Positions 10,599-50,100 of a DNA stretch of 64,000 nt are shown here, piece by piece. The notes under the pieces are model-generated. The model was not told the origin of the DNA. It searched no databases and saw nothing but the letters and a program-made list of their open reading frames with translations. Position 1 is the stretch's first letter. The number at the start of each line of letters is the position of its first letter. The translations under genes and the position numbers were made by a program. This DNA comes from a virus. Location of the stretch: the IMG/VR virus record IMGVR_UViG_3300033149_006612, positions 16,183 through 80,182 of that record. One strand, 5' to 3'.

Positions 10599-10874
10599 GC
10601 GAGGTCGTCCGCGATTTCTCTTTAATCTGACAAATGGCGTCCAATACCTGTCGATGCGTACCTTGCTGTTGTCTCAGCACGGAACAACGCTTAGCGACAG
10701 CAAGACGTGACGGGTCCCTACCCTTCTTCGAAGCCTCCCCCGAAATTCTCCGGGTATACCCTTCTCGTTTAGAGAAGGGTACCCCCCGAGTCAAATTCCC
10801 ATCATTCCGTCCCCCCCACTGCTCCATCCCGTCTCCGGATGAAAGTCGGTCCTCCCCCCGGGATCCGTCGTTGT

Positions 10875-11270
10875 ATGCGTGTATATATAGATTTTGACGG
10901 TACCCTTTTTCAAAGTTTAGACTTCCCGGACCCGGGGAAGCCCGTTCCCGGAGCCGCTGCATTTTTAAAGCGGCTCCGGAGGGAAGGTCACCATATCGTC
11001 ATATATTCAACCAGAGCGACCAAATGCGGCATCAACACCGAAAGGCAACGCCTCAAGCTGCTTAGACTTATGAAGGACGCCCTTGACGAATACGGCATGG
11101 TTTACGATGAGATCTCCGAGGATAAACCCCCGTGGGACATCCTCATCGACGATCGGTGTATCCGGTTTAAAGGTTCCTATGCCGACGTAGCCGATGAGAT
11201 GAAGGAATTTCGCCCCTTGGACTGGTCGGCCTGCGACGGATCGATGGATGACACGTTCAATGTGAGGTAG
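10875..11270 (+). CDS. Minimal HAD-superfamily phosphatase
   Basis: Motif I IDFDGT, motif II IYSTR, C-terminal KP..DILIDDR. Confidence 0.8.
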   Translation: MRVYIDFDGTLFQSLDFPDPGKPVPGAAAFLKRLRREGHHIVIYSTRATKCGINTERQRLKLLRLMKDALDEYGMVYDEISEDKPPWDILIDDRCIRFKGSYADVADEMKEFRPLDWSACDGSMDDTFNVR

Positions 11271-14161: not shown

Positions 14162-16744
14162 ATGAAGTACTGTAAATCATGCCCCAGGGCGGATGACCCC
14201 CTGGTCAATCCGGTACCTGGATTCCATCTACAACCGTCCAGCCGGGAGACTGCCAGAGTTATGATAATTCTGGAGTCTCCCACCCATATCCAAGTCGAAC
14301 ACGGTGATCCCCTGATGGACCGGGACTCGATCGATGACCCGGAAGCCGTCGAGGATATAGGTGCCATAATAGTTCAGCTGGAACGATGGAAGATCGACCC
14401 CTCCGAGGTTTTCATCACCTACCTTCAACGCTGTAAACCGCCTAAGTTCTCAAAAATCCAGGCCACCGAGTGTTATAAAACCCACGTCATGCCCGAGATT
14501 GAAACGGTCCGACCGGAGATCCTGATGCTGATCGGGAACAACGTCCTGTATACCATAACGGGTAGTAGAGGGATCCTGGCCAAACACGGTACTGTAATCA
14601 GGGTCGAAGGCTCCGACACCGTCCTCCTGCCCTGTATAGCTCCGAGTTACGTCCGTGCCATGGACGGCAGGCGACGGGAGGATGCCCAGCGGATGTGGGT
14701 CCAGGCGTTCCAGAGGTTGGCCGGTCTCCTCTCCGGGAGCGACGACGATGTAAATCAGAACTATCATATAGTCACGGGTCGCGACCGATCCCAATTGAAA
14801 GAACTGGAACGATACCTACTCGATCATGACTTCCATATGTTCGACCTGGAAACCTGGCCGTTGAAGCCTTGGGCTGAAGGGGCTCAGATACTGACCGCCG
14901 CCTGGTCCGCCTTTGAAGGTGAAGGTTGGGCAGTGGCATATGATCATCCCGAGGCCACCTGGACCTCCAAGGACAGGCGGTGGCTTAAGGACATGATCAA
15001 GGCATGGGCATCGGACAGGGATAAATTAAAAGGCGCAGCCAACGCCAAGTTTGAAATCATCTGGGTTCGGGAGATCCTCGGGGTAGAGCTGGAATCGGTC
15101 GTCGTTGACCCGATCGTGCTGGACTATCTTGATGATGAGAATCGCGACCACGACGTCGGAGCTATGGCCTGGAGGTATACCGATCTCGGCGGATACGACG
15201 CCTGCATGCGGGACTTTCGATATAGGGGTAAGGACGGCAGGGAGCAGCCCGACTACAGGAGAGCCCCGCTCGATCTGCTGGCCCGATATAACGTCACCGA
15301 TACGGACGTCGAGATCCGATCCATGAATGTCTTGATAGACAGGCTGGATGCCACATTAAAGAGAGTTCACGATGAGATACTGATCCCGGTTGCCTACACC
15401 CTGGCTACGGTAGAGAAGAACGGCTGGACCGTGGACATAGATCAGGCAATCAAGATATATGAGAAGTATGATCAGAAGTTGAAGGATCTACATGAGGAGC
15501 TCCGGGAAGACCCGGTCTTCCGACAGTTCGAGGAGGACCAGGGTAAACCGTTCAACTTTGACTCCTTCCCGCAAAAGGTGAAGCTCTTTTTCGGATGGGA
15601 CCCGAAGAAACACAGGAAATTCGATGACGCACAGAACCGGTATTTCGATTTCCCGATCGACTTTAACTTCATGACTAAAGCCCGGCATCCGTCCACCGAT
15701 AAGAACTGGCGTGCCGCCAACAAACACCACCAATTCGTGTCCGTCTATGATAGGTACATGAAGGCCTGGGGGCTGATGAAAGGATTCCTTAAGCCTCTGC
15801 CGGACTACATCGACAACAAGGACCGGCGGATCCACACCGACTACAACGCCGCGAAGGTGGTCTCCGGGAGACTGTCCTCCACCAACCCCAACACGCAGAA
15901 CTTCCCCGATGATAAGGAATTCTGGAGCATATTTATCTCTCGGTGGGGAAAACGAGGTGGAAGGTTCGTTAAAGCCGACTATTCCCAGGTGGAACTCCGC
16001 GTATTGGCCTGGCTGTCCAACGATCAGCCGATGATCCAGACGTTCAAAAACGGGATAGACATCCACATCCAAACCACGAAGGAATTCTTGGTTATCTCCG
16101 ACGAACAGTGGAACGCCTGGGACGATAAAACCCGGCACTATAAGCGGCAATGGGGGAAGAGGATGAACTTTGCCGTGGCCAATGACCGTGGCGCACATCA
16201 CCTGGCCCTGGATCTCACCTCCCTTCAGAGGGAGGTATCCGGAGATTGGAGCCTGGTCGTTACGGATGAGGAGGCCCAGGAATATATCGATCGCTGGTAT
16301 GCCCCCCATGAAGCCATCCTCGCCTGGAAGGAGGCCGAAATCGCTAAAGCCAGGGAGGTCGGCTACGTTGAATCCCCTCAAGGTTACCGGCGACGGGCAC
16401 CGGACGTCAATAACAGGTATGACAGCCATAAACGACTGGCTGCCGAACGCACCCTGATCTCGTTCCTCATGCAGAGCACGGCCGGGGTGATTACGCTGAT
16501 CGCCAAAACCCGAATCCAAGAGCTGATCACGGAAGGAAACTTTAAATCCAAGATCTGTGGGAGTGTGTACGACAGCATCATCCTCGATATAAGGATGGAC
16601 GAACTGGACGTCCTGTGCAGTCAAATCCCCGACCTGATGCGCCAGGTCGGTGTTGACTACGGCTGCCCGGTTCCGCTGGCCGTGGATCTGGAGATAGGCG
16701 AAGACGGGGGGAGCCTGGTGGCATATGATGAGGTCCCGTTTTAA
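14162..16744 (+). CDS. Family A DNA polymerase with N-terminal UDG-like domain and 3'-5' exonuclease
   Basis: N-terminal CxxC...VMIILESP...RCKPP...C (family-4 UDG-like); exo motifs DLET, NAKFE, YNVTD; SGRLSSTNPNTQNFP, motif A DYSQVELR, motif B RQWGKRMNF, motif C VYDS. Confidence 0.93.
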   Translation: MKYCKSCPRADDPLVNPVPGFHLQPSSRETARVMIILESPTHIQVEHGDPLMDRDSIDDPEAVEDIGAIIVQLERWKIDPSEVFITYLQRCKPPKFSKIQATECYKTHVMPEIETVRPEILMLIGNNVLYTITGSRGILAKHGTVIRVEGSDTVLLPCIAPSYVRAMDGRRREDAQRMWVQAFQRLAGLLSGSDDDVNQNYHIVTGRDRSQLKELERYLLDHDFHMFDLETWPLKPWAEGAQILTAAWSAFEGEGWAVAYDHPEATWTSKDRRWLKDMIKAWASDRDKLKGAANAKFEIIWVREILGVELESVVVDPIVLDYLDDENRDHDVGAMAWRYTDLGGYDACMRDFRYRGKDGREQPDYRRAPLDLLARYNVTDTDVEIRSMNVLIDRLDATLKRVHDEILIPVAYTLATVEKNGWTVDIDQAIKIYEKYDQKLKDLHEELREDPVFRQFEEDQGKPFNFDSFPQKVKLFFGWDPKKHRKFDDAQNRYFDFPIDFNFMTKARHPSTDKNWRAANKHHQFVSVYDRYMKAWGLMKGFLKPLPDYIDNKDRRIHTDYNAAKVVSGRLSSTNPNTQNFPDDKEFWSIFISRWGKRGGRFVKADYSQVELRVLAWLSNDQPMIQTFKNGIDIHIQTTKEFLVISDEQWNAWDDKTRHYKRQWGKRMNFAVANDRGAHHLALDLTSLQREVSGDWSLVVTDEEAQEYIDRWYAPHEAILAWKEAEIAKAREVGYVESPQGYRRRAPDVNNRYDSHKRLAAERTLISFLMQSTAGVITLIAKTRIQELITEGNFKSKICGSVYDSIILDIRMDELDVLCSQIPDLMRQVGVDYGCPVPLAVDLEIGEDGGSLVAYDEVPF

Positions 16745-17747: not shown

Positions 17748-18950
17748 ATGGTAGATATGGCCGCCATCCGTCGTCGCTACGACGAGATGCAGAGGAAACA
17801 ACGCGCGTCTTCAATCTGGAGACCGGCAGAAGGTGAGAATCTGATAAGGATCATCCCGTGGACCCATAAAGGGGTAGAATTCTTCTACCTTCAGTCGGCT
17901 CAGCATTTCTACGTCCGGCCGGATAAGGTGCCGGTCGAATGCCGGACGGGTCTTCTCGGTGAAGACTGCCCGATCTGCACCAGGCTGGAAATGGACCTTG
18001 AAGATCCGGAGACGGGGGAATCCGAACTCACCCGCATCAAGCGGATGCTGGCACGCGACGTCTATTACTTCAACATCTTCGACTGGCTCGCCTGGGAGGA
18101 ATGGCAAAAACTCAGCAGGAGTGAAAGGAGCAACGAAACCAAACCCGGATGTGAAATCTTCCCATGCCCCCCCGGCCTGGCCAGGGACATCTTCCAGAAA
18201 ATCCAGAATGAGAGGCTGTACCCGAATTTCTTCGATCTAGAAGACGGCTGTGATCTGTACATCCAGAACAGCGGTGAAGGATTCAACCGCTACACCCTGG
18301 ACATCCCACCGCAGCGAACCGCGGTTCCCAAACACGTCCTCGGGGAGGCGAAAAACCTGTTCACCTATGTTAAAGCTCCGTCTGAAGCCTGGGTGGAGGA
18401 ATTGATCACCAGGAACATCCGGGACATCAAGGATCTGAAGGAGGAATACCGCGGCGTTAACCGGATCGAGGTTCTGGGTGACATCGATGAAAGACCCGAA
18501 AACTGGCTCCTCTATTACTCCCCCGAAGAATCCACAAAATCCGCTGAGGGAAAGGCCGTCAATAAGGGGAGGAAAAAGAAAAAGGACAAAGGGAAGAGTG
18601 GCCTGGCCGCGCTCCGCTCAAAGATGGAGGGGAAGGAAGAAGGCGGAGGGAAAAAGCCTAAAAAGGAGGGATTTAAACGATCACCGATGACCGAGGATGA
18701 TGAAGACGTCCCCCGTTGCTGTGGGACCGATGAGACACCCGGTCACTGGGAGGAGGGATGTTCAGACTGCATCGCCTGTGTGGCCGAGGATGTCTGCCGC
18801 CATTTCACCGAGGGTCACAGGACCGTTACCAGGATCGCGAATGAGACGGAAACGAAGGCTGAGGAGGACAGCCCCCACCTCCGTGGCGTACAGGAACCCA
18901 CACCTGAGGAGAGTCCCCTAGACAGGCTTCGTAGGTTTAAACGGAAATGA
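17748..18950 (+). CDS. Single-stranded DNA-binding protein (T4 gp32-like)
   Basis: WRPAEGENLIRIIP, H...C...CPIC zinc motif, YYFNI, DLEDGCDLYI; charged C-terminal tail. Confidence 0.75.
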   Translation: MVDMAAIRRRYDEMQRKQRASSIWRPAEGENLIRIIPWTHKGVEFFYLQSAQHFYVRPDKVPVECRTGLLGEDCPICTRLEMDLEDPETGESELTRIKRMLARDVYYFNIFDWLAWEEWQKLSRSERSNETKPGCEIFPCPPGLARDIFQKIQNERLYPNFFDLEDGCDLYIQNSGEGFNRYTLDIPPQRTAVPKHVLGEAKNLFTYVKAPSEAWVEELITRNIRDIKDLKEEYRGVNRIEVLGDIDERPENWLLYYSPEESTKSAEGKAVNKGRKKKKDKGKSGLAALRSKMEGKEEGGGKKPKKEGFKRSPMTEDDEDVPRCCGTDETPGHWEEGCSDCIACVAEDVCRHFTEGHRTVTRIANETETKAEEDSPHLRGVQEPTPEESPLDRLRRFKRK

Positions 18951-19001: not shown

Positions 19002-20117
19002 GTGAAGCGAGGAAAACTCAACGTGCTGATTGACGGACAGTGGGGCAGCACCGGAAAGGGGAAAATTGCTGCCTATCTCGCCAACAAGTTCCGGATCGAC
19101 CTGGCCATTTCGAACAACATGAGCAACGCCGGTCACACCTTCTACGTGGACGGCCGGAAGTATGTGGCCTTCCACGTCCCGGCTGCGGTAGCCCGGCCGG
19201 ACTGTGAAGTCCTGCTGGGTCCGACCACGGCCATCACGCTGGACCTGTTCGAGAAGGAATTGGACTGTATGGAACGGTTAAACGTTCGAAAGCGGATGAG
19301 CATCCATCCCCATGCAACAATCATCACCGAACGGCATCGGGAGATCGAGGCCGGGTCCGTTGAACGGATTTCGTCCACCGTCAAAGGCTGTGGAGCCGCC
19401 CTAGCCGAGAAGGTGTCCCGGAGTAAAAACGTCCGACTGGCCGGTGAAGTTAAGGAACTAAGGCCCTATATCGCCGATACGGTCGAGATACTGCATACCG
19501 CCTTGGAGAATGGAGCCATCTGTTTAGCGGAGGTAGCGCAGGGATTCGATCTATCGTTAAACCACGGCATGCAGTATCCGTTCGTCACCAGCCGGGACGT
19601 CACGGTCTGTTCCTGCCTCAATGATTGTGGTGTCCCGCCCGCTGCGTTAGGTGACGTTTACGCCTCCCTCCGCTGCCATCCCATCCGGGTAGGGAATGTG
19701 GTCAGGGAGGGGAAGACGGTAGGTTGGTCCGGTCCTCATTACCCCGATCAGGAGGAATTGAGCTGGGACACCGTCACCAGGCAGTCCGGGAGTGAGAAAC
19801 CGTTGATCGAGAGAACCACCGTTACCGATAAGGTTCGCCGGGTCTTCAGCTGGTCCGACATCCAGTACAACAAATTCGTCAAGATGTGCGATCCGGATTT
19901 TGTATTCCTGAACTTCATCAACTACCTTGACGCCGATTTGTACGGTGTCAGTTCAGATGATGAATCCGGAATGCAGAGAGTCCTGGACTCCGAAAAGGTC
20001 GTCGAATGGCTCGACCGCCATTCCAAAGGTAACCCTAACTGGGTACCGGTCGCATACGTCGGGACCGGGCCGGATGAACGTCACATGGTCGATATGGGAA
20101 TCGACGACATCCGCTGA
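19002..20117 (+). CDS. purZ: PurZ, N6-succino-2-amino-2'-deoxyadenylate synthase (adenylosuccinate synthetase paralogue)
   Basis: GQWGSTGKG (Ser in place of the PurA catalytic Asp of GDEGKG), NAGHT, AQGFDLS..G.QYPFVTSR, PIRVG, ERTTVT..RRV, NFINY in place of PurA TKLD. Confidence 0.9.
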   Translation: MKRGKLNVLIDGQWGSTGKGKIAAYLANKFRIDLAISNNMSNAGHTFYVDGRKYVAFHVPAAVARPDCEVLLGPTTAITLDLFEKELDCMERLNVRKRMSIHPHATIITERHREIEAGSVERISSTVKGCGAALAEKVSRSKNVRLAGEVKELRPYIADTVEILHTALENGAICLAEVAQGFDLSLNHGMQYPFVTSRDVTVCSCLNDCGVPPAALGDVYASLRCHPIRVGNVVREGKTVGWSGPHYPDQEELSWDTVTRQSGSEKPLIERTTVTDKVRRVFSWSDIQYNKFVKMCDPDFVFLNFINYLDADLYGVSSDDESGMQRVLDSEKVVEWLDRHSKGNPNWVPVAYVGTGPDERHMVDMGIDDIR

Positions 20118-20169
20118 AACCCGGCCTTCCCGTGGGAATCCGCCTATCATATAGGATCGGTATATTGCT

Positions 20170-20655
20170 ATGAGAAAAGATGAGGATAGCCGCCCCCGTC
20201 GTCATAGATACGACCCCGACGGGGAAGAACCGAACGACGAGGCCCCTCCGCCGGTAAACCGAGACGGATACATCGAGTTCAAGACCGGGGCGACCCGCCA
20301 ATGCATTAAGCCCCGGTTTGATCTAATCCCGCGAGACTGCCTCGTCAGACTTGCCACCGTCTACCTCGAAGGTATGAGGAAATATGGGGTCGATAACTGG
20401 AAAAAAGGCATGCCCTGGTCGGATACCCTTAACCACGCCATCGACCACCTGCTGGCCTGGAAGGAGGGCAGACGGGATGAAGATCATCTCGGCCACGCCG
20501 CCTGGGGAATTTTTACCCTGATGTTCTTTGAGATGAACGATTATAGGGAGGACTGCGATCTGCCCTTACTGACCGAAACATTAGGAGTGAAACCGGATGA
20601 ACAAACTGCAGGTAAAGCGCCTGAAGGGACATCCTCACAGGCACCCGGAACTTAA
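20170..20655 (+). CDS. DUF5664 / dATP-dGTP diphosphohydrolase-like protein
   Basis: KPRFDLIP...G..KYG..NWKKG.....HAIDHL..W..G..DEDHLGHAAW pattern; directly after purZ. Confidence 0.8.
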   Translation: MRKDEDSRPRRHRYDPDGEEPNDEAPPPVNRDGYIEFKTGATRQCIKPRFDLIPRDCLVRLATVYLEGMRKYGVDNWKKGMPWSDTLNHAIDHLLAWKEGRRDEDHLGHAAWGIFTLMFFEMNDYREDCDLPLLTETLGVKPDEQTAGKAPEGTSSQAPGT

Positions 20656-21070
20656 GTATTGCTACGACGGTGATGTCGGGATGGACCTGATCGTCAACGT
20701 TGAAGATCAGGTCGTGATCCAACCGGGGGAGTTCGCGGACATCCCAACCGGCATCGCGATAAAGCTACCTGAAGGAACTTGGGCCGCCATCCGTCCCCGG
20801 AGTTCGACCTTTTTCCGACGAAGGTTAATCGTCTATGACGGTACGATCGACAACGGGTATACGGGACCCCTCTATATCGGGGTGTTTAACCCGGGACCGG
20901 ACGTTCAGATCATCCCGGAAAAGGCAAAACTGGCTCAACTGGTCATATTTAACCGAGTACCGATAGAGGAGGTTGAATACGTCGACAGCCTTCCCGAAAC
21001 CCAACGCGGGGAAGCCGGTATGGGGAGTTCTGACGCGGACGTAGATGGACGATGGACACGTACAACCTAG
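20597..21070 (+). CDS. dut: Trimeric dUTPase
   Basis: Five motifs: VGMDL, PRSS, GTIDNGYTG, AQLV, RGEAGMGSS. Confidence 0.88.
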   Translation: MNKLQVKRLKGHPHRHPELKYCYDGDVGMDLIVNVEDQVVIQPGEFADIPTGIAIKLPEGTWAAIRPRSSTFFRRRLIVYDGTIDNGYTGPLYIGVFNPGPDVQIIPEKAKLAQLVIFNRVPIEEVEYVDSLPETQRGEAGMGSSDADVDGRWTRTT

Positions 21071-22326
21071 ACTTCGAGACCCAGGTCAAGATCCTGGCGA
21101 TGGCCTGCCAGGATCCATCCTTCCTGTTGCAATACCGAGAATGTATAAATGCCGATTTCTTCACCCAAGAATCCTTAGTTCGAATCGCAGCCGTCATCCT
21201 TGACCATTTTGACCGTTATGACGACGCCCCGGATCGGACGGTAATCCGGCAGATGATCAAGGATCGTCATAACGATTTCGACGAAAACGAGCTTGAAGCC
21301 CTGATCGATGCCCTGTTCCACCCTCAGTATGACGCCGGTTTCGTCAGGGATGCCGTGATCGAATTTGCTAAGCGGGCAGCCTGGAAAGAACACTCCCTGA
21401 GATCCATCGATTTAATCGAATCCGGGGAATGGGAGGAGAAATGGGCCGACATCGAAAAAGGGGCTATGGACGCCCTATCTATAGGAGATCCCCAGCTTTC
21501 GATCGGCTATGAATGGAGGTCCGATCTCCGGGAAAGAATCCTAAACCTAAATAAGAAGGTACCGCGGGTCCCGACCATGATTAGAGGTCTGGATGAAGCC
21601 ATCAACGGCGGTCTGGCCGAGGGTGAACTCGGGATAGTGATAGCCCCCACCTCCGGATTTAAATCTACCCTCCTGATGAACTTCGCCGCCACGGCCCTTC
21701 TACAGAATAAAAGCGTTTACGTCTCCACCCACGAAATCCGAGACGTGTTCTGGGGGAGACGGCTGGACTGCCGTCTGACCGGCATGAACTTTGCCGCCAT
21801 GAACCGGAATCCGAGCATGGCGATCAAGAGGATGGAAACCATCCTCAAGAAATACCGGGCCAAGATAATCATTAAGGAATTCCCATCCGGGCAGGCAACA
21901 TGGCAGCAGGTCAAGAGGAACATTAACCTGTGGAGACGTCGAGGTTATCATTTCGACCTGATAATAGTCGACTATCTCGAAGAATTGAGAACTACGATCT
22001 CCACCAGGGACCGGCATGATCTAAGCCTGAAGAGTATAGCACAGGGGCTTCGAGCGATCGGTCAGGAATTGAAAGTCCCTGTCTGGACGGCCCAGCAGGC
22101 CCGTTGGCAGGCCGAAAACAGGGACCGGGCTGACTGGACATATGCAGCGAATTCCAAAGGCACCGTCCACGTCTCGGATGTAACGCTTACCATCAACCAG
22201 ACCAGGGATGAGAAGGAGGCGAATGAGGCCCGGTTATACGTGACCAAGAACCGCGAAGGTAGGAACCATGTGACCATTCCGGTCTCCATTAACCCGGACT
22301 ATTTCAGAATCAGCGAAAATCCCTGA
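21052..22326 (+). CDS. dnaB: Replicative DNA helicase (DnaB/gp41-like)
   Basis: GGLAEGEL, Walker A APTSGFKST, IIVDY, PVWTAQQ, KNREG. Confidence 0.9.
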   Translation: MDTYNLDFETQVKILAMACQDPSFLLQYRECINADFFTQESLVRIAAVILDHFDRYDDAPDRTVIRQMIKDRHNDFDENELEALIDALFHPQYDAGFVRDAVIEFAKRAAWKEHSLRSIDLIESGEWEEKWADIEKGAMDALSIGDPQLSIGYEWRSDLRERILNLNKKVPRVPTMIRGLDEAINGGLAEGELGIVIAPTSGFKSTLLMNFAATALLQNKSVYVSTHEIRDVFWGRRLDCRLTGMNFAAMNRNPSMAIKRMETILKKYRAKIIIKEFPSGQATWQQVKRNINLWRRRGYHFDLIIVDYLEELRTTISTRDRHDLSLKSIAQGLRAIGQELKVPVWTAQQARWQAENRDRADWTYAANSKGTVHVSDVTLTINQTRDEKEANEARLYVTKNREGRNHVTIPVSINPDYFRISENP

Positions 22327-22332
22327 AGCACT

Positions 22333-23247
22333 ATGGATTATTCAAGGCAGCAGCAACGGATCATCCGGTCCCTTGAAGCCAAACTGGGCTCCGGTAGGAA
22401 ATCCGGGTGGAACATCTATTTTGACTGCCCGTTCTGCAACGATACCCGGCGGAGGATGGGAGTTGAGATCCGGAAGCAGATCTTCGGCTGTTTTAACTGT
22501 AATGCCGGTGGGACCCTCTCGGCGTTGTTTCGGGAGATCGGGGTCGAACGACGGGCAAGGATCGTTCCGGAGAGGGTCATCGGGGAGCCCGAATTCCAGT
22601 CGGGTCTAAACAGGATAGATCTGCCGGAGCACTACACGCCGATCGGAAATCCGGTGCGTGGATTCCTCATGCGCCGAGCGGTTACCTATCTTCAAAATAG
22701 GGGTCTCGGGATGGATTGGATCGTTAAGCACAATGTCGGTTACTGCCCGGACGGACCTTATATCGATCGGGTCATCTTCCCCATGTTTCACCACGGTGAC
22801 TGTGTATACTGGGTGGCGAGGTCCATCATTCCCGACGTCAAACCTAAGACCAAACATCCGGCCGGGGTACGAAGGCCCGTCTGGACATTCGAACCGCCAC
22901 GCAAGTCGGCCCGAAGACTGATTATCGTTGAGGGTCTGTTCGACGCCATCCCGTGCCCCGACTCCGTGGCACTCCTGGGATCGACGGCCAGCCGGTCTCA
23001 GCTGGATTTCCTGCTTAAGCTCAGACCTAAGGAATACATCCTGATGTTTGACGGCGATAAAGCCGGGATCGACGGTGCCGTCAAGCTCGGAACCCGGCTA
23101 CAGGAGCGGACGGAAGCCCCGGTTACGGTGGTAGAACTCCCGGACGGTCTAGATCCGGCCGATCTCAGGACGGAGGAGAACCTCCGCCCCTTCATCGAAA
23201 ACCGGAGAAGACTGGATCTCCGGTATGTGTTCTCCAGGAGACTCTAA
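22333..23247 (+). CDS. dnaG: DNA primase (zinc finger + TOPRIM)
   Basis: CPFC...CFNC zinc finger, DRVIFP, IVEGLFDA, FDGDKAG, DPAD. Confidence 0.9.
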   Translation: MDYSRQQQRIIRSLEAKLGSGRKSGWNIYFDCPFCNDTRRRMGVEIRKQIFGCFNCNAGGTLSALFREIGVERRARIVPERVIGEPEFQSGLNRIDLPEHYTPIGNPVRGFLMRRAVTYLQNRGLGMDWIVKHNVGYCPDGPYIDRVIFPMFHHGDCVYWVARSIIPDVKPKTKHPAGVRRPVWTFEPPRKSARRLIIVEGLFDAIPCPDSVALLGSTASRSQLDFLLKLRPKEYILMFDGDKAGIDGAVKLGTRLQERTEAPVTVVELPDGLDPADLRTEENLRPFIENRRRLDLRYVFSRRL

Positions 23248-47108: not shown

Positions 47109-50100
47109 TTAAGGTCCCCTGTATCCTTCTAATGCGTTCGGCCGTCCGTTCCGCAATCTGAGCGGCGTTCCGCTCCATTAACTCGTTAATCCTCATAGCC
47201 AACGCTTCATCATCCTGCACATCACCTTCTACCGTGATGGGAGAATTTACATTTACACTGACGTTAACCGACCGGCCCCCGGCAGGCATCCTGCTGACCG
47301 GTTCCCCGCCACGCCTGGCATTAAAGACGTCGGCGAACGACTGCTGCAGCCGGGACATGGCCGCCGATTGCCTCCTGTTTATTATCTCCTCACCGGCGTG
47401 TACAAAAGCCAGGCCGGATCTCTCAACGAATCCCCCGATTTGACCACCGGGCGGTCTTATTCCGGGTGGAGACCCGATCTGCGCATACCGTGCATCAACA
47501 TCACCGAACGGGATACCGGTTATGCTGTTTATCGCGTCCACCGCGCTACCGGTGTCATCCCTGATGTCGGCCAGATCGGAATTGATTGAGGCTGCCGTGT
47601 CCGACGACGCCGCTTTAACATTCGCCAAAGCGTCGATCAATCGTTCAATCGCCACCTCAAACCGTTTCGTCATATCCTCGATGGCCGATGCCAGGGTATC
47701 CTGCAGCCCCTCTACCTCGCCCATCACATCCTGCACGACTGCCTGTGCCTTTTCATTGTCGGCAATGAATTCGGCCAACGACAGCCCGGCCGCCTGTGCC
47801 TCCTGAACGATCCGGGTAAAGGCCTCAAACTTAGACACATCCCCGCCGAGTTCATTGATCTTCTTTCGTATCTCGTCGGTGAGCTCTCCGGTCTCCAGGA
47901 ACTGGGCAACCCAACCCTGGGTCGCCGGTAACAGTTCTTCCAACTCGTTCCTCAAGGTGCCGAACTCATTCTGCAGTTCCTTGGTGGCTCGGAGTTCTGC
48001 GTTCAGACCCTCCACGGACGCAGCCAGGACCGGATCGACGGCTTCAAACTTAGCCTTCAACTCATCGGTCAGCCGCCCGGTCTCAAGGAAATCGGTCACC
48101 AGGTCTTGAAGCTCCTCATCCAGCCTCTCAAAACTGCTGGCAGCCTGGTCAACCCCTCCGGCCATCTCGATCACCTGGTCTATCAATCCCCGGTAATCGA
48201 CCCCGATGGCCTGTTGGAATCCGGGTCCCGCACTGTCCAGCAGGATCTTCAACTGTCTCCCAAATTCCTCCATATTGCCTTCTTCAACCGCCTGTCTGGC
48301 CGCATCGCTGAGGTCGAAGAAAACCGATCCGCCCTCCCGGGTGTACTTCAATCCGGCCGCTACCGCCTTGGCCCCCGCCTCCGCACTGAAGGCAATCCGG
48401 GACATGTTCTTAATAAAGACGTCGGCCGTGGTTTTACCGGTTAAACCCTGCAGGGCTGCAAAGAGGGTGGTGGTCTCCTTCCTGTGATGCTCCAACGCCT
48501 TAGCCGTGGTCTTCAAGGTCTCGGTGATGAATTGATTCACGTTACCTAGACCGGAGAAATCCCGGACGGTTTCTTCATCGAATTTTTCCTTGGCCGTTTT
48601 CTTGAACAACCCGACGAGCGCACCGACACCCTTGGTGATGAGCCCCGGTAACATCGCCAGACCACCGCTCACCAGGCCGCTCACCAGGCCGCCCGCCAGG
48701 CCGCCGAACAACCCGCCGAGATTTAGACCGCCGAGCTTCAGACCGCCGAACAGGCCACTGATTCCGCCGCCGATTTTATCGCTCAGCTTACTGAACGCAC
48801 CCGCTAACGGCTGCATCAGACCGACGGTTGTGGTCTGGAGCAATGAAGAGCCCAACTGTTTAAACATACCCTTCATCGTCTCGCCGAAGCTCTTACCTTC
48901 GAAGATGATGTCGGACAGGCCCTGGGCGAAGTTGGATGTTATATTCCCCATGGCCGTACTCCAGACCTTCTCCCACTTTTCGGCCTCCTCCTGATTTCTC
49001 TGTAACTCCTCGGTGAACTCGATGGCCGCCCTGACCTCGTCGCTGAGTTCGATCCCGAGCTTGTCAGCCTGGTCCTTCATCTTGGCGAGTGCACCGCCGT
49101 CCCTGCCGATCATGACGAGGATGTCCTCCAGGTCGAAACCCCGCTGGGTCAATTCCTGGAAGACCGTGTTGACATCTTCGATTTCCTGAGCCAGTTCTCG
49201 CTTTCTCTTAAAGACGTCCAGCGTAACGTCGGAGAGAACGCCGAATTCGTCGGACAGCTTGACTGTCTGTGGGACCTCGGCCATAATCAACGCCGTACCC
49301 TCTCTAATACTCCTGTTTAACTTTTTCTTTTCGGCCTCGACGATCTTCAATGCGTTCTTGTGGCCCTCGGCCTTCCTGGCTGCCTCCTCAAGACCGGTGA
49401 TGAATTCCGGTAACTCCTTGTTCGATTCACCCAGGGCGGTATTCAATTCACGCTGTTTCTTAGCCGCATCGATTATCTGTTTGCCATAGGCCGCTATCAG
49501 TTCTTCCTTACTGAACCCCTCCTTGTTCAGTTTAATCAACATCTCCTCCAGGTTGGCTGCCGGGTTTAACAGGTCCCTGGTCCTGCTCTTCAGAGCCTCA
49601 AGTGCCTTGGCCTCCCTCTCGATCTCATCTGTACTCCTCCCGACGACCTTACCTAGACCGGTCTCGATCTTATCCAACTGTTCGAGAGTCCTACCGGCGT
49701 CCTCAGCCTCGTCCGAAACGGTCCCCAGCTCCTCACCCTGGTCTGCAAGCTCCTCGGTCACGGCCTTGAAACTGTCGGCCGCAGCGTCGGCGTCCTTCCC
49801 GGCCACACCGAGCCATTCGCCAAATGCCCGTATCCTGTCGGCCACCCAGCCCAGGGTATCCGCGATCTTCTGCAGCCAGAAATTGATCGCCACCTTAAGA
49901 ATATCGGCAAACCAACTGAGGATCGGACCTACTACGTCCTTAACCGCCGAAGCGAGGGTCAGGAACGCCGGACCCAACCCCTCCTTGATCCATTTCCAGA
50001 TGCCCCGGAACAGGTCCATCAGGGCAGACCCGACATCGGATAGGGCATCCCACACCGCCCCCAACGCCTCAGAGTCCGCGGCCAGGCCTACCAGCAGGCC

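Follow-up and report, generated by a model that had tools for sequence, protein, structure and literature searches.

How might a phage that makes 2-aminoadenine (Z) for its DNA clear its nucleotide pool of deoxyadenosine triphosphate (dATP), if it encodes the synthetase PurZ and lacks DatZ, the dATP triphosphohydrolase of the classical PurZ gene clusters? Phages with Z-DNA are a model for the swapping of one of the four bases of a genome, and their enzymes are used for making Z-substituted DNA in the laboratory. The question is raised by a locus of an uncultured phage, IMG/VR record IMGVR_UViG_3300033149_006612, of which bases 16183-80182 (of 80,182 bp) form the window analysed here, a stretch of 64,000 nucleotides to which all positions refer unless stated otherwise. 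At the centre of the locus are three genes, whose open reading frame (ORF) coordinates are as a preliminary description of this DNA had given them:

19002..20117, + strand: purZ, ATP-type N6-succino-2-amino-2'-deoxyadenylate synthetase, 371 amino acids (PF00709, 7e-34; phrog_1211, which is the PHROG for synthetases from Z phages, 2e-65)
20170..20655, + strand: stand-alone DUF5664 protein (PF18909, dGTP_diPhyd_N), probable deoxynucleoside triphosphate (dNTP) diphosphohydrolase, 161 amino acids (PF18909, 1.4e-19; phrog_801, 7e-18)
20597..21070, + strand: trimeric dUTPase (Dut) of the PurZ-linked, DutZ-like group, 157 amino acids (PF00692, 2.7e-17; phrog_135, 4e-31)

We propose that these genes are probably the nucleotide-metabolism core of a Z-genome phage, in which an ATP-type PurZ is accompanied by two diphosphohydrolases that replace DatZ and MazZ, with activities assigned by analogy to the assayed DutZ and DUF5664-1 enzymes. 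Specifically, 1) the DutZ-like dUTPase and the stand-alone DUF5664 protein would convert dATP to dAMP and pyrophosphate, removing the competitor; 2) the same two enzymes would also convert dGTP to dGMP and pyrophosphate, feeding PurZ; 3) PurZ would join dGMP and aspartate, with ATP, to give the succino-aminodeoxyadenylate dSMP; 4) PurB and kinases of the host would complete dZTP, a search of the genome having found no phage-encoded PurB and no kinase of the type seen in the phage's relatives; and, 5) a SPO1-like family A polymerase encoded by the phage itself would replicate the genome with Z. The model enzymes are the DutZ proteins of two phages, Ghobes and Wayne, together with Wayne's stand-alone DUF5664. 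They turn dATP and dGTP into the corresponding monophosphates, preferring dATP approximately tenfold, and they also hydrolyse dUTP, DutZ still doing so well (Poubanne et al., NAR 2026, PMC12884076).

The placement of the synthetase was determined from 80 IMG/VR loci, gathered with a profile built from metagenomic PurZ homologues, and from a tree of 75 rows (IQ-TREE, LG+C20+F+G4, rooted on bacterial PurA). This tree contains a PurZ0-like group (98/98), the Bacillus phage vB_BpsS-140 on its own, and a PurZ group containing what we call clade B (99/95), which includes the window PurZ with its sister, locus L009 (100/99), and no cultured phage. The clade-B loci of IMG/VR are L009-L039, L043-L049 and L053, and counts for clade B are given out of 38 loci, that of the window included. 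Identity to the PurZ of cultured Vibrio, Acinetobacter, Alteromonas, Ochrobactrum and Bacillus phages is 33-43%, and to actinophage PurZ0 28-31%, with many metagenomic homologues at 42-55% in a large protein collection. When 185,579 prokaryote species genomes were scanned, no PurZ relative turned up, and so there was no prophage or host clue. It was also observed that several PurZ homologues that branch deeply and share 33-42% identity with any reference (L102, L105, L104, L121, L122, L133 and L107) fall on the PurZ0 side, outside the actinophage PurZ0 group; each locus has an adjoining Dut gene, L102 and L105 having Dut and a kinase, and three of L104, L121, L122 and L133 also have DUF5664.

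The residues of the protein agree with this placement. Among solved structures its best relative is PurZ of phiVC8 (6FM1, E 8e-57), with which W14, S16, T272, F305 and Y308 of the window PurZ align at F12, S14, T262, F295 and Y298, respectively. Ser16, in the motif GSTGKG, stands where PurA has its catalytic Asp13 and is unchanged across 30 close homologues, while W14 is aromatic and matches the clade-B consensus, and T272 is invariant. The segment N304-F305-I306-N307-Y308 aligns with NFCNY of phiVC8 and replaces the guanine-binding (N/T)KxD motif; in phiVC8, F295 and Y298 stack on the adenine of ATP (residue roles from bioRxiv 10.1101/2025.10.22.683976). In a census of 85 sequences, bacterial PurA carried GDE with TKLD, PurZ0 carried GSE with (S,T)xxD, and PurZ of clades A and B carried GST with NFxNY (GST in 29 of the 33 clade-B rows), the window synthetase being of the type GST/NFINY. 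One cited paper on Z phages gives ATP and GTP as the nucleotides preferred by PurZ0 and PurZ 'respectively'; the reverse order is indicated by the introduction of that paper and by the present census.

We conclude that 19002-20117 encodes a PurZ-type succinoaminodeoxyadenylate synthetase, with the use of dGMP and ATP predicted from its residues. The preliminary description had reached the same identification from GSTGKG (Ser codon at 19047-19049) and NFINY (from 19911); both coordinates are exact, all the residues match, and a phylogeny with PurA, PurZ and PurZ0 puts the enzyme inside ATP-type PurZ, in clade B (99/95), apart from PurZ0 and PurA. Because the synthetase has every PurZ-defining residue and falls within the PurZ clade, a Z-substituted genome is expected, although the Z content of this phage's DNA is a prediction from sequence; the earlier suggestion of partial or full A-to-Z substitution therefore stands as to substitution, and nothing indicates its degree.

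DatZ was sought in the whole 80,182-bp genome. The HD-domain models PF01966, PF12917 and PF13023 gave no match, PF01966 detecting DatZ of phiVC8 at 22.8 bits as a positive control. A DatZ hidden Markov model (HMM) seeded from four phages recovered 44 DatZ genes in other PurZ loci (E 1e-30 to 1e-66), while its best value among the six-frame ORFs of this genome was just 0.41. The remark in the preliminary description that no DatZ was in view thus extends to the complete genome, as judged by these four models, and the same is true of the clade: of the 47 classical (clade A) loci, 43 have DatZ no more than 8 kb from purZ, and of the 38 clade-B loci none has. DUF550 (PF04447) was likewise not found anywhere in the genome. 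Among cultured PurZ phages the closest is vB_BpsS-140 (L003, MH884512.1), which forms a basal PurZ branch of its own. This phage lacks an HD-domain protein, carries a dUTPase at 47793-48242, approximately 10 kb downstream of purZ, and may serve as a culturable model of the DatZ-less arrangement.

Other genes fill the place beside purZ in clade B. An adenylate-kinase-like P-loop gene (PF00406/AAA_17) lies directly 3' of purZ in 33 of the 38 loci (L010:3271-4299, L018:9134-10687, L015:9089-10193, L027:9056-9586 and 29 further loci), and in the nearest relatives of the window a dimeric-dUTPase domain (dUTPase_2, PF08761) is either fused to it or comes after it. A search of the window's genome found neither the clade-B kinase nor PF08761. 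This partner of PurZ is not described in PMC12884076, where the word 'kinase' is absent from the text, nor in bioRxiv 10.1101/2025.10.22.683976. A trimeric Dut of the supported group to which the window protein belongs occurs in 13 of the 38 loci and DUF5664 in one, that of the window itself. Dut, dUTPase_2 domains or DUF5664 are found beside purZ across a clade without DatZ.

The dut gene begins with an ATG at 20597, with a GGAG ribosome-binding site 9 nt 5' of it, and overlaps the 3' end of the DUF5664 gene by 59 nt in another frame. All five trimeric-dUTPase motifs align in its product. The preliminary description had called two of them altered: motif V is indeed GMGS, where 68 of 85 Duts compared have GFGS and approximately a tenth of the set have other variants, but the RSS of motif 2 is canonical. 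Fifteen of the 17 IMG/VR Dut loci most similar to the window Dut carry purZ, mostly a Galactica-like PurZ0, and this linkage has nearly gone at lower ranks. In a tree of 82 Duts, all 29 that are PurZ-linked, among them DutZ of Ghobes, Wayne, Goodman and Galactica, are set apart from the rest by one branch (64/72), a split that 0 of 500 label shuffles matched. The window Dut pairs with that of L061 (100/85), within a set of nine rows that are all PurZ-linked (96/86). It is probably a member of a PurZ-linked dUTPase group that clusters with DutZ, for which dATP and dGTP hydrolysis is predicted. A role for Dut in a thymine-modification pathway was also considered, given the SPO1-like polymerase, and was rejected, as neither ThyA-like nor ThyX genes were found in the genome.

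In the DUF5664 protein the PF18909 domain spans approximately residues 41-126, and is followed by a C-terminal tail of 35 residues predicted with low confidence (disordered). All the residues conserved in the family are kept (R43, G68, N76, W77, G80, H93 and H106), and the DUF550 part found in phage SH-Ab 15497 is missing. The family is large, with 9,937 cluster representatives at E <= 0.001, of which more than 150 context-less ones are 45-61% identical to the window protein; Z-linked copies other than that of Wayne are at 32-36% (PurZ0-linked) and 26-35% (clade-A-linked). By identity ranking the window protein is orthologous to neither Z-phage lineage, DUF5664-1 (Wayne) or DUF5664-2 (Acinetobacter). 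One homologue, P0122 (61% identical), probably stands beside a PurZ (P0005, 53% identical to that of the window), going by the equal length, 2,248 bp, of the contigs from which the two come.

An AlphaFold2 model of the DUF5664 protein is a helical bundle with a three-helix core (mean pLDDT 78). Foldseek found nothing significant for it in the PDB, its weak rows including PRA-PH, S-2L MazZ, a MazG-related protein and RS21-C6, and the best VIA-align match was 2p06 (AF_0060) at Z 7.5, under the safe level for helical bundles. Since there is no significant Foldseek match and this Z is too low, the model goes no further than to suggest a MazG-like, all-alpha nucleoside triphosphate (NTP) pyrophosphatase fold.

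According to PMC12884076, PurZ0 genomes use DutZ, DmtZ and DUF5664-1, and PurZ genomes 'mostly' DatZ with MazZ-2 or DUF550. The locus shares features with both arrangements. Like the Wayne and Ghobes clusters (PurZ0, DutZ, DUF5664-1 and DmtZ), it has no DatZ and no clear MazZ, places a Dut-family enzyme and (as in Wayne) a stand-alone DUF5664 just 3' of the synthetase, and has a Dut that probably groups with their DutZ, apart from 53 non-linked Duts (64/72). It differs in that its synthetase is ATP-type, GST/NFINY against the GSE/TxxD of PurZ0 (28-31% identity); its DUF5664 is 30% identical to that of Wayne; it lacks an evident orthologue of DmtZ, with or to which DutZ is usually found or fused there, and has a distant NDT-like gene 23 kb off; and its polymerase is SPO1-like rather than DpoZ-1, in a genome of 80 kb that is not actinophage-like. 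With the classical clusters of phiVC8, S-2L and SH-Ab 15497 (PurZ and DatZ with MazZ/MazZ-2 or DUF5664-DUF550, with or without DpoZ) it shares the PurZ type and its dGMP/ATP specificity residues, a purZ inside the replication module near a family A polymerase and, as in Acinetobacter phages, a DUF5664 domain after purZ; unlike them it has no DatZ, no clear MazZ-2 and no DUF550, its DUF5664 is stand-alone, it has a Dut (present in one of 47 clade-A loci), and its PurZ is just 33-43% identical to theirs. The S-2L triad of purZ, mazZ and datZ has been co-expressed in E. coli (PMC8342488). Compared with other clade-B loci it has the same order of polymerase, small ORF, SSB (a protein that binds single-stranded DNA), purZ and then helicase and primase, with DatZ absent throughout, but their kinase-like gene and PF08761 are missing and DUF5664 and Dut stand instead.

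The record itself is a complete genome, with the final 114 bases a copy of the initial 114 (class direct terminal repeats; rated 100% complete). Cultured relatives of its TerL reach just 22-30% identity. The three genes belong to a + strand replication block (window positions approximately 10.6-23.2 kb), with the order HAD-like protein, RecA, PDDEXK nuclease, family A polymerase, two small ORFs, gp32-like SSB, purZ, DUF5664, dUTPase, DnaB helicase and primase. The polymerase is kept beside purZ in 23 clade-B loci, the gp32-like SSB is the conserved upstream neighbour in 23, and the DnaB-like helicase is found in 22. Features of this block and of the region outside the window that bear on the argument are:

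10839..11270, + strand: HAD-like small phosphatase, the '10875' protein of the preliminary description (PF13344, 1.4e-3, weak; phrog_1238, 4.7e-19)
14162..16744, + strand: family A DNA polymerase of the SPO1-like type that joins uracil-DNA glycosylase (UDG) to PolA (PF00476, 1.7e-56)
17748..18950, + strand: gp32-like SSB, directly 5' of purZ (PF08804, 2e-6; phrog_1192, 8e-14)
21052..22326, + strand: DnaB-like replicative helicase, 3' of dut (PF03796, 1.3e-18; phrog_19, 2e-64)
22333..23247, + strand: DnaG-type primase, final gene of the + strand replication block (Toprim_2, 1.8e-9; phrog_47, 8.5e-44)
G000:C1:11788-12132 (record numbering, outside the window), - strand: MazG-like ORF (PF03819, 1e-7; phrog_3301)
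G000:C1:12347-12817 (record numbering, outside the window), - strand: NDT-like ORF (PF05014, 2.3e-6, 23.9 bits, below the cut-off; PDB 4MCJ, 3.5e-22; phrog_30579)

The polymerase is the only DNA polymerase found in the phage. Its best cultured relatives are the UDG-PolA proteins of SPO1-like Bacillus phages (24-27% identity), and no Z-phage polymerase of the DpoZ-1 or DpoZ-2 type is among the 25 matches listed for it. Its O-helix reads NFAVAND (region 16142-16576), the near-invariant Tyr being replaced by Asn. The polymerase of the sister locus L009 (2709-5273) has an N-terminal UDG domain (PF03167, 4.5e-26), and Pfam detects none in the window copy.

The MazG-like ORF, a 73-amino-acid ORF and the NDT-like ORF stand in a row 3.4-4.4 kb ahead of the window's first base (L172), 23 kb from purZ. 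A search for mazZ in the rest of the genome thus turns up a MazG-like ORF (PF03819); against the MazZ-2 HMM it gives E 0.74, and among solved structures it does not match S-2L MazZ. In the NDT-like ORF the catalytic Glu aligns with E103 of DmtZ and Tyr6 is Phe, at 21-24% identity to DmtZ; BLAST found no DmtZ homologue in the window's genome, and in other PurZ loci DmtZ is present solely in those that are PurZ0-like. Neither ORF has homologues in the other PurZ loci examined. A New England Biolabs preprint ties PF00692, NDT and UDG domains to dZ-enriched contigs (bioRxiv 10.1101/2025.10.22.683976). The two ORFs are candidates for the handling of dAMP or dNTPs, and any tie to Z metabolism is speculative. 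Homologues of the HAD-like protein (approximately 30% identity) occur in replication modules of PurZ loci from different clades (L019:10075-10590; L036:2991-3497, also in L037; L121:1827-2384). This protein had been put forward as a possible means of excluding dATP, and no evidence ties 10839-11270 (phrog_1238) to dATP. The broader suggestion that dATP is excluded by a route other than DatZ fares better, as DatZ is absent and the adjoining Dut and DUF5664 have assayed relatives that hydrolyse dATP, but such a route is not unprecedented: its proposal for Wayne-like phages dates from 2021 and its demonstration from 2026.

Several observations weigh against assigning dATP removal to these two enzymes. 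In motif V the window Dut has Met where both DutZ and canonical Duts carry a base-stacking Phe, and it is just 34-40% identical to the assayed DutZ. The branch that joins its group to these DutZ is weakly supported (64/72), and the background of that tree is the 80 closest IMG/VR loci rather than all dUTPases. The DUF5664 protein, at 30%, is less similar to the assayed Wayne enzyme than to the context-less representatives at 45-61%, and its family is common in phages with ordinary DNA, for example Cutibacterium phages. These points would be consistent with an alternative, which we regard as unlikely but deserving of consideration, that Z is made while the neighbours do housekeeping, Dut preventing uracil from entering the DNA, as any dUTPase would, for the benefit of a UDG-type polymerase, and DUF5664 acting as a house-cleaning NTPase of a generic kind. 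Exclusion of dATP, perhaps partial, would then fall to use of (d)ATP by PurZ, to the altered polymerase site or to the MazG- and NDT-like proteins. Since the assayed DutZ still cleave dUTP well, linkage to purZ is no proof that Dut acts as a dATPase; the polymerase, which resembles the UDG-PolA proteins of SPO1-like phages, has lost the O-helix Tyr; DUF5664 is widespread in non-Z phages, with the window copy nearer to context-less homologues than to any that is Z-linked; and MazG-like and NDT-like genes are present in the genome. However, the nearest relatives of the Dut are almost exclusively purZ-linked, which is unexpected for a generic Dut, the slot adjacent to purZ is filled by Dut, dUTPase_2 or DUF5664 throughout a clade without DatZ, and the MazG- and NDT-like genes lack counterparts in the other PurZ loci examined.

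It is far less probable that the synthetase is a PurA-type or PurZ0-like, GTP-dependent auxiliary enzyme of purine synthesis in a phage with canonical DNA. The match to PF00709 is to the general PurA family, and the protein also resembles the archaeal PurA of Pyrococcus (E 6e-43), but Asp13 has become Ser, invariantly in 30 close homologues, (N/T)KxD has become NFINY, the protein branches inside PurZ at 99/95, away from PurZ0 and bacterial PurA, and none of the 185,579 prokaryote species genomes holds a relative. Equally improbable is a functionally classical cluster with a diverged or different-fold DatZ-like dATP triphosphohydrolase, for although many of the approximately 100 ORFs are without a family assignment and the Pfam HD model gives phiVC8 DatZ merely 22.8 bits, the DatZ HMM that finds 44 genes at 1e-30 to 1e-66 elsewhere reaches just 0.41 here, and DatZ occurs in 0 of 38 clade-B loci.

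For the preferred reading, of PurZ accompanied by two diphosphohydrolases, the removal of dATP without DatZ is already known in kind, and what is new is the pairing of known accessory families with an ATP-type PurZ. Also new are a DUF5664 that, by its sequence, falls outside both described Z-phage lineages, and the loss here of the kinase gene that most clade-B loci have next to purZ. More tentatively, and short of what we would call probable, clade B may be a large uncultured sister lineage of ATP-type PurZ that never uses DatZ, and in which at least three pyrophosphatase folds, unrelated to one another, have been placed next to purZ, namely that of a trimeric Dut, that of a dimeric-dUTPase domain joined to a nucleoside monophosphate kinase and, here alone, that of a DUF5664 whose recruitment was independent of both lineages described in Z phages. 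This would make the window phage a natural 'minimal swap', in which the kinase was lost and Dut and DUF5664 were gained. If this is the case, it would show that dATP diphosphohydrolysis suffices for a PurZ genome and not only for a PurZ0 genome.

The literature of 2026 describes two toolkits, one in which PurZ is combined with DatZ/MazZ and one in which PurZ0 is combined with DutZ/DmtZ/DUF5664. The window genome and clade B would break this split, because in them an ATP-type PurZ would work with diphosphohydrolases and without DatZ. In related phages the kinase-dUTPase_2 protein stands out as an uncharacterised partner of PurZ. Confirmation of the proposed activities would provide a compact three-gene set, purZ, duf5664 and dut, and would mean that the 'functional convergence' reported for these systems reaches the PurZ side.

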